Shown one piece after another: positions 18,503 through 51,435 of a DNA stretch of 64,000 nt. The notes beneath the pieces were generated by a model. That model searched no databases. It saw nothing but the letters and a program-made list of their open reading frames with translations, and had not been told where the DNA came from. This DNA is from Eledone cirrhosa (lineage: Eukaryota): the NCBI GenBank assembly GCA_964016885.1, contig OZ024764.1, positions 6,200,001 to 6,264,000 on the forward strand, read 5' to 3'. The translations under genes were made by a program, and so were the position numbers. The first letter of the stretch is position 1; each line of letters begins with the position of its first letter.

Positions 18503-18576
18503 TCACGACACATGTTTCAATAAGAGATAGATCGATTGTGAAGCCATGATCGATTATCACTGATCTCATCAGGTGA
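18503..18576 (-). ncRNA. Type-I hammerhead ribozyme with extended stem II
   Basis: UCAC CUGAUGA GAU C AGUGAUA AUCGAU..AUCGAU C UAUCUCU U AUU GAAAC AUGU GUC GUGA. Confidence 0.7.
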
Positions 18577-18936
18577 AAATGAATTGTCTTCAAATTCTTG
18601 ATATGAGGGAGAAAAAATAACGATGTTCTCTCACAGAATTCATTCCCTCATATGAAGACAGACCAGTCAGAGACAAGGCAACTGCTATTAACTTCAGTTG
18701 AGGTCATAAAAGTTGTCAGATTTCTTTTGCTGCAAAAGAAATCTCACAACTTTTATGACCTCAACTGAAGTTAATAGCAGTTGCCTTGTCTCTGACTGGT
18801 CTGTCTTCATATGAGGGAATGAATTCTGTGAGAGAACATCGTTATTTTTTCTCCCTCATATCAAGAATTTGAAGACAATTCATTTTCATCTGATGAGATC
18901 AGTGATAATCGATCATGGCTTCACGATCGATCTATC
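18526..18936. repeat. ~411-bp near-perfect palindrome (two ~205-bp arms, 1-nt centre at 18731)
   Basis: ttttgc-T-gcaaaa at the centre. Arms are reverse-complementary with about 3 mismatches by eye. Confidence 0.95.
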
Positions 18937-19329
18937 CAGCCACAGTAACCACTTGGTAATACACTGCACATCTCCTGTCAATCTATGAAGGGTTTGTAGT
19001 AGATTAGAGAAAAACACAATCAGTAAAACAGTAATGGAATGAAAAATAAAAAATATTTTTATAGTTAAAGCCTTAAGATGTCCCTTCCTTACGATATACA
19101 CTTCAATCACATCAAAACTTATTTAATAAGTTTTAAATTTTAAACACTTTTTATTCAGATTTACTGCGATAAGAAAATAGTTTTGTTCTAACGAAAAATC
19201 CGCGATGTAACGGGGATTACCGTGATAGGAAGTGAGATACGTTCCAAAGAAAAATCTGCGATGTAGCAAGACCGTGATATAGCAGGGGATTACTGTATGT
19301 ATGTATGTTTGTGTGTATATATATATATA

Positions 19330-19929
19330 AGTTGGTGCTACTGGTAATATGTATCCCAGTACAACCTGTCTCATGGTCGGGTCGTTGGCGACTAAACTGG
19401 CAACCCCACCAAGGTTTCTTGGTGAGGAGGGTGACTTTGGACATCCTGCAGGACTAAAAACAAAACCTGTCAAAGGGCAAAGGAACTCTTAAGAGTCAAT
19501 GGCCATCCAAAATCACTGGGAGAGATGACCCCTTAGCCTTTTTCAAGGCAGAATTCTAGGAGAAGGGAAACTCTGATATAACACCTGCAACCCTGATGGT
19601 ATCCGATGATGTTGACTTGTTCTTCTTTCTGGTAAATATCATCTTGGTTAAGAGAGAGGGACTGGCTTTGTGCAGTGCCTTTGCTCACTATAAAAGCTTC
19701 ACGGCACAGGCATTGCTTTATATCTGGAGATCTCTCTGCACTTGTCGTCACATGGTACCATGGGCCCAGCACTATGTGTCAATAATTGTCACAAGTGTAG
19801 TGTTTGTACCAGAGTTTTCAAGTCGCTGGCTGGACTAAAAAGTCACACTCGTTCAGCGCATCGGTAGGGGTTCTCCTACATGGATATAAAGTAGTGGCCG
19901 TACTCGAAAACGAGTTGGTAGCCACCATA
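19330..19929 (+). mobile_element. ~600-bp interspersed repeat, copy 2 (inverted relative to copy 1)
   Basis: About 13 substitutions versus copy 1 by eye. Confidence 0.65.
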
Positions 19930-20950
19930 TATATATATATGGCTGACTCATATAGACGTGTTTTTTTCTGAAAAGAAGTTTTTCTCTGTTCCTGCCTTTT
20001 CTCATTCTCTACTTTCCTATTTCATCCTTTCTTTCTAACTCTATCTTCTGATGAAGTACTAGTGTCTGAAATGTTACAAATCTTTCTCTACTATATCAAG
20101 CATTAAACTAATATATTTTTTTTATTGTTCTGTGTTGTTGTTTACTTAGTTGATGAGCAAGACACAGTTATCTGACCTGACTTGCCTCAAACGGGACAAC
20201 TTGTCTAACCCATGCTAGTGTGGAAAGTAGACTTTAAAAGATGATCATGATGATGATGATATTTACTCTCTATCTTTCTTCTTCCCTCTCTCCTTGTCTC
20301 TCTCCCCCTCTCTCTCTCCCTCCCTCTCTATCTTCCTATCTCCTTCTAGCCCCCTCTTACTATCTAATCCCTCCCTCACTCTGTCATCTCTCACTTTAAC
20401 CCCCCCCCCTCTCTCTCTCCCTATCGCACGTAAACCAACATCCCACCGTCACCACCACTACCATCATCATCACCATCATCAGATGAAGCAACACAAACCT
20501 GTTAATTTCTGCACCATCCCCCCCTTCCCCGCTGTCGCCATCATTTAATTGTGCAGACTCACCTTGAGACTGGGGGGTGGGGGTGGGGTGGGGGTGGGGG
20601 TGATATTGATATAGTTGTTGTTGTTGTTGCAGTTGTTGTTGTTGTTGTTGACAGTTTGTGCAACATTGTGGCATTTAACTGTGGAAAAGGTTTTACAGTC
20701 ATAAAGTGGTCTTTATCATCATTGGTGTATATGTGTGTATATATATACACATGTGTGTGTATATATATATATATGTGTGTGTGTGTATATATATATAATA
20801 TAATATATATATATAATAACATATATATATAATAACATATATATATATATATATACAGATATAGTCTGTGTATATATTGTGTGTATAGTGTGTGTATGTG
20901 TGAATACTGTTTGTGTGTGTATTGGTGTGTATGTGTGTATATATATACAC

Positions 20951-21006
<56 letters not shown>

Positions 21007-21449
21007 ATGTTTCTACTTTAGGCACAAGGCCAGCAATCACCCAGTGTATTACTGGTACTTTATTTTATCGACCCCGTAAAGATGAAAGGCAAAGTCAACC
21101 TCAGTGGGATTTGAACTCTGAGGTTGTATATATATATAATATAATATATATATATGATAACATATATATATAATAACATATATATATATATATATACAGA
21201 TATTGTCTGTGTATATATTGTGTGTATAGTGTGTGTATGTGTGAATACTGTTTGTGTGTGTATTGGTGTGTATGTTGTTTCTGTGTGTGTGTGTGTGTGT
21301 GTTGTTATGTGAAGGTGTGTAGCTCAGTAGTTAAAGTGTTGTGTTTGGAAGTGTCACCACCAACACAGGACTTTATGATGGTCTTGCACAAAGTTAACAG
21401 ACATAGTAACTCAAATAAGATGGTTCTTTTGAAGGGTCATTGTAAGAGA

Positions 21450-22030
21450 CATCTTGGAGAAATGGACCTAATCATGGTGGCCAAAATATGGACAGATTGA
21501 CCACCATGGCAAACAGAGGGTCATTGTGAGGGACATCCTGAAGAAATGGGTCTAATTCTGGTGCCATGGTGGCCAAAATATGGACAGAATGACCAAGAGA
21601 CATGAGGTCAGTATATAGGATATCCTGAAGAAATGGGTCTAATTCTAGTGCTATGGTGGCCAAAATATGGACAGAATGACCAAGAGACATGAGGTCAGTA
21701 TATAGGATATCCTGAAGAAATGGGTCTAATTCTAGTGCTATGGTGGCCAAAATATGGACAGAATGACCAAGAGACATGAGGTCAGTATATAGGATATCCT
21801 GAAGAAATGGGTCTAATTCTAGTGCTATGGTGGCCAAAATATGGACAGAATGACCAAGACACATGAGGTCAGTATATAGGATATCCTGAAGAAATGGGTC
21901 TAATTCTAGTGCTATGGTGGCCAAAATATGGACAGAATGACCAAGAGACATGAGGTCAGTATATAGGATATCCTGAAGAAATGGGTCTAATTCTAGTGCT
22001 ATGGTGGCCAAAATATGGACAGAATGACAG
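21450..22030. repeat. 87-bp minisatellite (~6-7 units)
   Basis: aagaaatggg at 21541, 21628 and onward. Confidence 0.9.
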
Positions 22031-22056
22031 TAAGAATCATGAGGTCTGTGTTTGGG

Positions 22057-22955
22057 AAGCAATCGTCCCCCACATTCTTACTTGTGTCTTTCTGAAGTCC
22101 ACCATGTCCACACAGTAGGACTGAACCAAAGAACCACATGTGGCCAAAGCAATCCCCCCACATTCATACTTGTGTCTTACTGAAGTCCACCATGTCCACA
22201 CAGTAGGACTGAACCAAAGAACCACATGTGGCCAAAGCAATCCCCCCACATTCATACTTGTGTCTTTCTGAAGTCCACCATGTCCACACAGTAGGACTGA
22301 ACCAAAGAACCACATGTGGCCAAAGCAATCCCCCCACATTCATACTTGTGTCTTTCTGAAGTCCACCATGTCCCCACAGTAGGACTGAACCAAAGAACCA
22401 CATGTGGCCAAAGCAATCCCCCCACATTCATACTTGTGTCTTTCTGAAGTCCACCATGTCTACACAGTAGGACTGAACCAAAGAACCACATGTGGCCAAA
22501 GCAATCCTCCCCCACATTCATACACGTGTCTTTCTGAAGTCCACCATGTCCCCACAGTAGGACTGAACCAAAGAACCACATGTGGCCAAAGCAATCCCCC
22601 CACATTCTTACTTGTGTCTTTCTGAAGTCCACCATGTCCCCACAGTAGGACTGAACCAAAGAACCACATGTGGCCAAAGCAATCCCCCCACATTCATACT
22701 TGTGTCTTTCTGAAGTCCACCATGTCCCCACAGTAGGACTGAACCAAAGAACCACATGTGGCCAAAGCAATCCCCCCACATTCATACTTGTGTCTTTCTG
22801 AAGTCCACCATGTCCACACAGTAGGACTGAACCAAAGAACCACATGTGGCCAAAGCAATCCCCCCACATTCATACTTGTGTCTTTCTGAAGTCCACCATG
22901 TCCACACAGTAGGACTGAACCAAAGAACCACATGTGGCCAAAGCAATCCCGCCAC
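22057..22955. repeat. 88-bp minisatellite (~10 units)
   Basis: aagcaatcccccc...ccacatgtggcca repeated. Confidence 0.95.
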
Positions 22956-23139
22956 ATATAATTGTTTCTACTTTTGGCACAAGGCCAGCAATTGTCCCAG
23001 TGTATTACTGGTACTTTATTTTATCGACCCCCGTAAGGATGAAAGGCAAAGTTGATCCCCCCCCCACATATAATGCTGTTAAGCCGGCCCTGAACAGACT
23101 CTCACGCTTCTTATGTGGCTTCCATAGTGTGAATATCTA

Positions 23140-50696: not shown

Positions 50697-50697
50697 T

Positions 50698-50778
<81 letters not shown>

Positions 50779-50824
50779 AAATAAAATAAATAAGTCAAAT
50801 GTTTAAAATTTAGTTTCATTTATT

Positions 50825-50879
50825 ACTGCTATATATATTTCGGTGACAGCCATCTTTGGCTGTGACCTCTTCAGGCAGT
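50825..50879 (-). ncRNA. Type-I hammerhead ribozyme (left copy of inverted pair)
   Basis: Exact reverse complement of 50940-50994. Confidence 0.8.
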
Positions 50880-50939
50880 TATACACCTCAGTTGTACACC
50901 TCAACAACATGTGTACTCGACTCTACCACACGAATTCGG

Positions 50940-50994
50940 ACTGCCTGAAGAGGTCACAGCCAAAGATGGCTGTCACCGAAATATATATAGCAGT
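50940..50994 (+). ncRNA. Type-I hammerhead ribozyme (right copy of inverted pair)
   Basis: ACUGC CUGAAGA GGU C ACAGCCA aaga UGGCUGU C ACC GAAAU AUAU AUA GCAGU. All three stems pair. Confidence 0.85.
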
Positions 50995-51150
50995 ACATCT
51001 TTAATAAACGAAGCCAAATTTTAAACATTTGACTTATTTATTTTATTTTATTTTATTTTACATTACTCCGGAGTAACCAAACCAACCTGCGCACATCGTC
51101 GAGTGCTCCAATCTGCATACTGAGGTGTTGGTATACAACCAATATATACT

Positions 51151-51204
<54 letters not shown>

Positions 51205-51364
51205 ATACTTTGGGAGGGTCATGTTGCCAATAAAGAATCTTGCTAAACAAATTCAGAAACGAAATATATATATATATATATGTCTATCCAGCGAATTTTC
51301 ATCATATGTTGATTTAAAACTTCACTATTCACAAGTGTTTTTTAAGCTTCATATCATGTCTCCC

Positions 51365-51435
51365 TATTTTATCTGATGAGAACGCAGATATCATCCCATG
51401 ATGATATTTGTTTTTGAAATGCGCATAATAAAATA
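51365..51435 (+). ncRNA. Type-I hammerhead ribozyme
   Basis: UAUUUUAU CUGAUGA GAA C GCAGAUAUCAUC ccau GAUGAUAUUUGU U UUU GAAAU GCGC AUA AUAAAAUA. 8-bp stem I and palindromic AUGCGCAU stem III. Confidence 0.85.

Follow-up and report, generated by a model that had tools for sequence, protein, structure and literature searches.

Penelope-like elements (PLEs) carry hammerhead ribozymes; in the portions of the literature drawn on here they are poor cutters alone, and one needed its element's protein. The minimal hammerhead ribozymes (min-HHRs) of Cervera and De la Peña 2014 (PMC4209133) are described, in the sections available, as having a larger-than-usual helix II, a palindromic helix III and low activity as dimers, and the available part of File S2 of Craig 2021 (PMC8557442) gives 25 Hydra families, each of which has an uninterrupted stem II and GUH; Hydra-1_oBim of Octopus bimaculoides is among them. 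An anole PLE hammerhead, according to excerpts of PMC11167929, cut only when the element's protein was added, and cutting was not required for insertion. Here we describe hammerheads in a 64,000-nt stretch of the Eledone cirrhosa genome (GCA_964016885.1, OZ024764.1, 6,200,001-6,264,000, forward strand; hereafter the window) in which stem II is interrupted at its fourth position by an unpaired C opposite C or U (C·Y). We conclude that these motifs are type I hammerheads in the pseudo-long terminal repeats (pseudo-LTRs) of Hydra-clade PLEs, their PLE identity being close to certain, and that the mismatch is probably under selection.

A descriptor scan of the window returned the seven motifs recorded in an earlier note on this DNA and no other match of that form (shuffle mean 0.02; 0 of 100 shuffles reach seven), and a chance reading was rejected. 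The hammerhead cores, and the one complete insertion among them, are as follows.

18507..18572, minus strand: GAUC-AGUG family core, with C·U at stem II position 4, stem III ACAUGUGU and a GUC triplet
36710..36760, minus strand: GGAC-1 family core, with C·C, stem III AUAUAUAU and AUA; element about 36656-36899
45489..45539, minus strand: GGAC-2 family core, with C·C, stem III AUAUGUAU and AUA
45953..46001, plus strand: AAGC family core, with C·C, stem III AUAUGUAU and AUA
50774..51155, no strand assigned: whole inverted, doubly 5'-truncated insertion bounded by (TA)n tracts, with one short and one tailed end
50830..50874, minus strand: GGUC family core, inverted partner, at a short end, 56 nt to (TA)n
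50945..50989, plus strand: GGUC family core, with C·C, stem III AUAUAUAU and AUA
51373..51427, plus strand: GAAC/AAAC family core, with C·U, stem III AUGCGCAU and AUA; element about 51295-51472

For these loci the noted closing pairs, the stem III 8-mers and, at position 4, the C facing C or U were all borne out, as was the AUA triplet in five of six types. All seven loci have the type I core CUGANGA / GAAA / UH. The further helix said to lie above the mismatch is broken, and not predicted to fold, in the 36710..36760 copy, which is decayed relative to its own family. The window holds only 5'-truncated element ends, with no trace of a parent open reading frame (ORF), and its seven loci do not stand for seven independent origins, since each is a copy from a retroelement family that numbers thousands.

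Pattern counts over the 3.0-Gb genome, with the reversed pattern as control, show the extent of these families. The pattern of the earlier note matched 115,904 times (control, 1,726) and a tighter pattern 108,627 times (control, 47); hammerheads with other stem III loop sizes fall outside these counts. Loose patterns with a non-C at position 4 (20,412 versus 10,252 in the control) or with C opposite a purine (5,305 versus 2,895) gave matches that, among those listed, belonged for the most part to a satellite, to point mutants and to hammerhead families of other kinds. Because of these two counts, approximately 90% of the excess over control in the pattern class can be assigned to C·Y.

The motifs found upstream of the hammerheads, xDKT, GxYRDD, CxCx5C and, at the C terminus, GIY-YIG, are those of the Hydra clade and bear out the earlier assignment to PLE-type hammerheads. 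Each element has a single ORF encoding a reverse transcriptase (RT) with DKT, a CxCx5C linker and a GIY-YIG endonuclease (EN) at the C terminus, matching in its motifs the accessible portion of the Craig 2021 alignment; after this frame come 1-2 kb of 3' region and then the hammerhead, and the element ends ~45-60 nt beyond it in (TA)n. An EN CCHH motif was not seen by eye in alignment A1, which did not include canonical PLE ENs. Pfam gave no family at a meaningful E-value for four element ORFs, no relative was found among viral contigs, and no RNA contigs were listed for the element's 3' end, a result without bearing on expression.

Five of the six window families are tied directly to Hydra-type frames (fetched loci are given by L numbers). 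The AAGC family lies 3' of a Hydra-type EN in 7 of 30 ORF-anchored loci (1.5-kb flanks) and also in L267 and L270. GAAC/AAAC hammerheads occur in tandem on both sides of a Hydra-type ORF in L040, where they are 3.94 kb apart, one before and one after a 775-aa frame, and in L282, where the tandem unit is 2.88 kb; in L041 they lie downstream of an 821-aa open frame and have an inverted truncated partner. As 143 scored copies of the C-terminal part of this L041 (AAAC) family are 97-100% identical, the family is young. The GGUC family (26-nt tag, 3,073 exact matches) is accompanied by Hydra-type ORF remnants in L272-L275, the GAUC-AGUG family (24-nt tag, 1,322 exact matches) has a Hydra-type EN remnant inside all four fetched inverted pairs (L276-L279), and a GGAC-2 copy in L222 has a Hydra-type EN 1.6 kb upstream. 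The sixth family, GGAC-1, is linked indirectly, by 76% flank identity to the 45489..45539 (GGAC-2) copy. In L040 and L264, the 5' hammerhead precedes the start of the ORF by ~150-300 nt and so falls where the promoter is presumed to be. Truncation at the 5' side has reduced most copies, and all of those in the window, to ends, which frequently have an inverted partner. A non-LTR retrozyme reading, which calls for short head-to-tail units lacking an ORF, was rejected, since the copies in the window occur as single or inverted ends and full-length coding members exist in the families. Separately, L258 and L259 contain open Hydra-type frames of 729 and 758 aa, for which the scan found no hammerhead within ~2.6 kb downstream or 1.2-1.4 kb upstream.

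To follow the mismatch across lineages we aligned 13 representatives, hand-picked out of 25 clusters (145 unique matches), with continuous-stem clusters excluded and one cluster supplying two representatives. The hammerhead core is invariant in all 13. Position 4 of stem II is likewise unpaired in every one (C·C in nine, C·U in two, C·A and U·C in one each), a count that partly reflects the choice of rows, and C stands on the 5' side in 12. The claim that position 4 is always C opposite C or U thus holds in the window but not across the representatives. The six pairs neighbouring position 4 are 92% paired, and each of them shows double-sided change, so that the compensatory changes reported for the flanking pairs are confirmed on the larger set. 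None of 500 shuffles reaches the covariation score, and structures slid along the alignment are at most 50% paired; for the three stems with open stem I, double-sided changes occur in 13 of 15 pairs, compared to at most five in slid controls. The first stem II pair is the loosest, being unpaired in three of the 13: of the three base pairs described below the mismatch, the first is formed in 10 representatives, with U·U, A·C and A·A also occurring there.

Loops and flanks are wholly different between mismatch lineages, whose proteins are 39-52% identical between main groups. In quick protein trees built without bootstrap, these lineages fall in one branch with Shimodaira-Hasegawa-like approximate likelihood ratio test (SH-aLRT) supports of 96-98. 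Within the branch there are also a family whose stem II has collapsed and proteins without an assigned hammerhead, and the only named protein inside it is from Argonauta hians. The mismatch is likely to have arisen once and to have been kept for a long time thereafter. Net of control, 4.4% of copies genome-wide have another base in place of the 5' base, C10.4, versus 2.4% for the catalytic G8; about a third of the listed matches with a replaced G8 belong to the collapsed-stem-II family, and many of the replacements at C10.4 are C-to-T changes preceding a G, such as post-insertion decay would be expected to produce. Hence C10.4 is nearly, not fully, as fixed as the hammerhead core. Conservation of the mismatch in a larger alignment, which the earlier note had required, is seen both genome-wide and in the 13 representatives. 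DNA contigs covering the hammerhead list no variant at either mismatch base, although these contigs may be close to the source and carry little weight. As a candidate marker of the mismatch branch, the sequence SDKTN was abandoned, since it also occurs in Hydra-1_Obim, whose stem is continuous.

Stems I and II are predicted in the better-preserved copies, and stem III is not predicted in monomers. The stem III 8-mer is self-complementary through different sequences, and its innermost two bases are complementary in 12 of 13 representatives. These two bases cannot pair within one strand, and their complementarity therefore supports pairing between two hammerheads. A requirement for a dimer in the predicted cleavage is, on this basis, likely. 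In 14 of 15 folded examples, stem II becomes more stable by ~4-7 kcal/mol once the mismatch is closed. Whole-motif folding z-scores were weak (-3.2 to +1.3) and were not used as support.

Within 130 nt of the cleavage site, (TA)n is found in 100 of 164 copies, compared to 21% of random places, and most of the others end at 130-200 nt; insertion into (TA)n is thus as described for the Hydra clade. The (TA)n in which copies end lies at one of two distances beyond the cleavage site, ~43-60 nt or ~130-155 nt (190-220 in two lineages), which corresponds to a tail of ~90 nt in most lineages and ~140 nt in two. In the window, the element of 18507..18572 ends at (TA)n 48 nt beyond its cleavage site, the element ends lie at 52 nt for 45489..45539 and 50 nt for 45953..46001, and the tailed long end of 50945..50989 is 165 nt from (TA)n. 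Among inverted pairs in the fetched loci, 29 of 34 combine one short and one long end. In L040, sequence beyond the short end continues into the leader of the next ORF, so that the long end would need a tandem or circular template. All genomic copies keep the sequence 5' and 3' of the cleavage site. A PLE tail and two start sites are already published, with a tail of 30-40 bp (PMC11167929, in the portion available), and the bimodal ends seen here match them, with a longer tail. Two candidate features of the ends were dropped: a fixed distance to the element end as a mark of the variant, as the accessible part of the published Hydra table implies similar distances by subtraction, and AATAAA 3' of the cleavage site as a general feature, as it is absent in the AAAC, GGAC and GAUC families.

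These data suggest a model in which the template would be a tandem or circular transcript, with reverse transcription starting at two sites 3' of an intact hammerhead to produce the short and the tailed ends. Two hammerheads, both supplied by tandem copies, would pair through stem III to cut, and cutting would probably occur only with help from the element's own protein. The C·Y mismatch would be a selected trait of one sub-clade, most likely one that serves folding or protein binding.

A canonical 4-bp stem II ends, and its loop starts, at position 4. This placement would suit a mismatch that contacts stem I or a partner hammerhead in place of the loop II-stem I contact, which the portions of the literature drawn on here describe for fast natural hammerheads (a U·U first pair is also known in natural hammerheads). 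The identity of the base, C in 12 of 13 lineages, is in keeping with such a contact, as is the A-rich sequence after the 3' strand of stem I in most families, which could give sequence-tolerant minor-groove contacts. Stem I, however, has no shared unpaired base and no shared length; its bulge varies in position and its unbroken part ranges from ~4 to at least 8 bp. Nor did loop II give a pseudoknot signal in any of 14 representatives, although sequence-tolerant contacts would escape such a test. The choice between C and U at 11.4 showed no covarying partner either, with U present in only two lineages. The tertiary contact of its own that had been proposed for this stem II therefore finds no support in stem I or loop II, and we consider a contact of this type improbable. 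A mismatch that merely weakens stem II, giving a slow ribozyme whose uncut RNA survives as template, would fit the 4-7 kcal/mol gained on closure, the presence of sequence on both sides of the cleavage site in every genomic copy and the AUA triplet, the slowest of four in the plus strand of eggplant latent viroid (ELVd(+)) in the published data available. But any mismatch or bulge would weaken the stem, yet here both the position and the base are nearly fixed, and other Hydra hammerheads manage without a mismatch; simple damping is accordingly a distinctly unlikely explanation. Least probable of all, and very unlikely in our view, is that the C is kept for a DNA-level reason, such as a pseudo-LTR promoter or endonuclease recognition, or is an unselected leftover of one ancestor. 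The 5' hammerhead does lie in the presumed promoter region, and a single origin is likely. Neighbouring bases, however, change freely with compensation across the hairpin, and loops and flanks differ wholly; because all of these changed, an unconstrained site at position 4 should have changed as well.

On balance, we lean toward hammerheads in pseudo-LTRs that would cut as protein-assisted dimers, with a mismatch that would act in folding or in protein binding and not through a base-specific contact to stem I. If the mismatch is selected, a role as protein or folding handle would take, by our analysis, somewhat under half of the explanations; we favour it over a sequence-tolerant tertiary contact, and the latter over plain damping. 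A more specific proposal, in which an octopod-associated Hydra-clade radiation carries a distinct hammerhead subclass and the mismatch would be an RT-endonuclease docking site or a new tertiary contact that switches on cleavage only in a dimeric ribonucleoprotein, is doubtful. Several observations weigh against the reading that we favour. The mismatch probably arose once, so that its families are not independent origins, and a one-clade test neither rejects nor shows monophyly (approximately unbiased test, p-AU 0.68). Position 4 is U·C or C·A in small lineages and is closed by a G-C pair in one small family. The same genome harbours intact and abundant Hydra families that have continuous stems and no mismatch (L252, L254), and a sister family inside the mismatch branch lacks any stem II pairing (L249, L283). 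The GGAC-1 family is tied to an ORF by flank similarity only. Finally, anole RNA trimmed to +20 of the ORF, and so lacking most of stem II, still inserted (PMC11167929, as excerpted), from which it follows that stem II was not needed for insertion in that element.

The collapsed family itself (L249:4072, L250, L283) has its cores in short sub-repeats, with no predicted stem II pairing and many A for G8. It is possibly a lineage that lost the ribozyme yet spread.

Other hammerheads and repeats lie in or near these loci. At about 6994-7025 of the window (minus strand) there is a classical minimal hammerhead with an unpaired A after A9, a G-C closing pair, a 4-bp stem II, a CG palindrome and GUU; as the same motif is found in L270, it belongs to another repeat family. 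A weaker hammerhead-like motif at about 16418-16456 (minus strand) has a U·U first pair and GUC, lacks C·Y and has no relative among the fetched loci. Three same-strand hammerheads spaced 310 nt apart at L205:695-1315 are retrozyme-like, and a related short-stem family occurs at many loci, often as inverted pairs. In the hammerhead family of L091-L093 and L232-L241, to which no parent ORF was tied, there are 4-5 closing pairs, stem II contains a large internal loop, and stem III is ACCAUGGU. A repeat at about 18300-18410, 36431-36539 and 46077-46245 of the window also adjoins (TA)n, with an inverted repeat near 46170-46240. Tandem arrays occupy 30300-33000, 39151-43620 and 48120-49210, with units of 72, 95 and 65 bp, and a partial tRNA match in a dispersed repeat at 52286-52343 (plus strand) is probably the head of a tRNA-derived short interspersed nuclear element.

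A single base fixed across lineages whose proteins are less than 50% alike, beside sister lineages without it, offers a clean one-base handle on the contribution of stem II. Young open frames (821 aa, copies 97-98% identical) are present together with their own RNA in the same genome and thereby provide matched parts. The ~110,000 copies found here, compared to up to 9,000 per genome in the available part of PMC4209133, indicate that current models miss many hammerheads in a large invertebrate genome. Were the subclass proposal true, these motifs (>100,000 copies), missed by Rfam models, would rank with the most abundant ribozymes of any animal genome. The finding leaves the known hammerhead class unchanged and gives no pointer to a host function.

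The core is the same as that of the Rfam hammerhead families (Hammerhead_1 and others), CUGANGA / GAAA / UH. The comparison with Rfam models that had been suggested gave no match to the mismatch motifs: no hammerhead family reached its gathering score in the window, and none appeared to an E-value of 10 in two short scans covering five of the seven motifs; in a whole-window E-value scan, microsatellite microRNA matches dominate among the best 150 of 467. In the PLE-hammerhead literature we found no description of the C·Y form at position 4, the small-variant list of Lünse, Weinberg and Breaker lying outside this comparison. The term "hammerhead" is absent from a 2026 Octopus vulgaris repeat annotation, and a 2026 retrozyme preprint does not discuss the stems in the portion available. 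Apparently, then, the C·Y mismatch is a structural variant not described before, inside a known class. The suggestion of an undescribed subclass stands insofar as C·Y is absent from the published alignments drawn on here; it does not extend to the long stem II, the palindromic stem III and cleavage after A, which are already published for Hydra-clade elements.

The small variants of Lünse, Weinberg and Breaker, as cited in the accessible text of PMC6765202, are also PLE-associated, have a reduced stem III and cut as dimers. Like the PAc hammerhead of the anole Poseidon element (PMC11167929, in part), those described here have two insertion end points downstream of them, with a tail as the result, and the template keeps an uncut site. 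By contrast, PAc belongs to another PLE clade, its tail is 30-40 bp compared to ~90 nt (~140 nt in two lineages) here, and no mismatch is described for it in that portion. With the min-HHRs, as given in the sections of PMC4209133 drawn on here, they share a location in pseudo-LTRs, a long helix II, a palindromic helix III, a predicted dimer, many families per genome and inverted neighbours. The min-HHR consensus, however, has an unpaired H after A9, a G10.1-C11.1 pair and a continuous helix. In our 13 representatives the first position faces a base of the 3' strand and is G-C in two, and position 4 is never paired. An internal C·Y is found in none of the 56 min-HHR rows of those sections, and in the D. 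virilis variant helix II carries a bulge of one base, not a 1x1 mismatch as here. The AUA triplet is already present in one published PLE hammerhead, from S. mediterranea (PMC4209133, same sections), and in ELVd(+).

The closest relatives are the Hydra hammerheads. Metagenome contigs gave 76 loci of Hydra-type relatives, with 41 distinct sense-strand hammerheads. In these 41, position 4 is paired in 37 and purine-purine in four, with no C·Y; 29 have GUA and one AUA, and stem II begins with U·U in 18. Those of Craig 2021 (PMC8557442, in the part available) agree with ours in being type I, near the 3' end of a PLE with a C-terminal EN in (TA)n, with a loose first stem II pair, a near-palindromic stem III of 3-4 bp and cleavage often after A. 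They differ in that none of the 25 families has C·Y at position 4, a count obtained with a descriptor possibly biased against mismatches, whereas the variant here has mostly U15.2-A16.2 (AUA) and a longer 3' region. The elements reported there are "generally" <3 kb; the unit found here reaches 3.9 kb (3.94 kb in L040), and the variant is present in ~110,000 copies.

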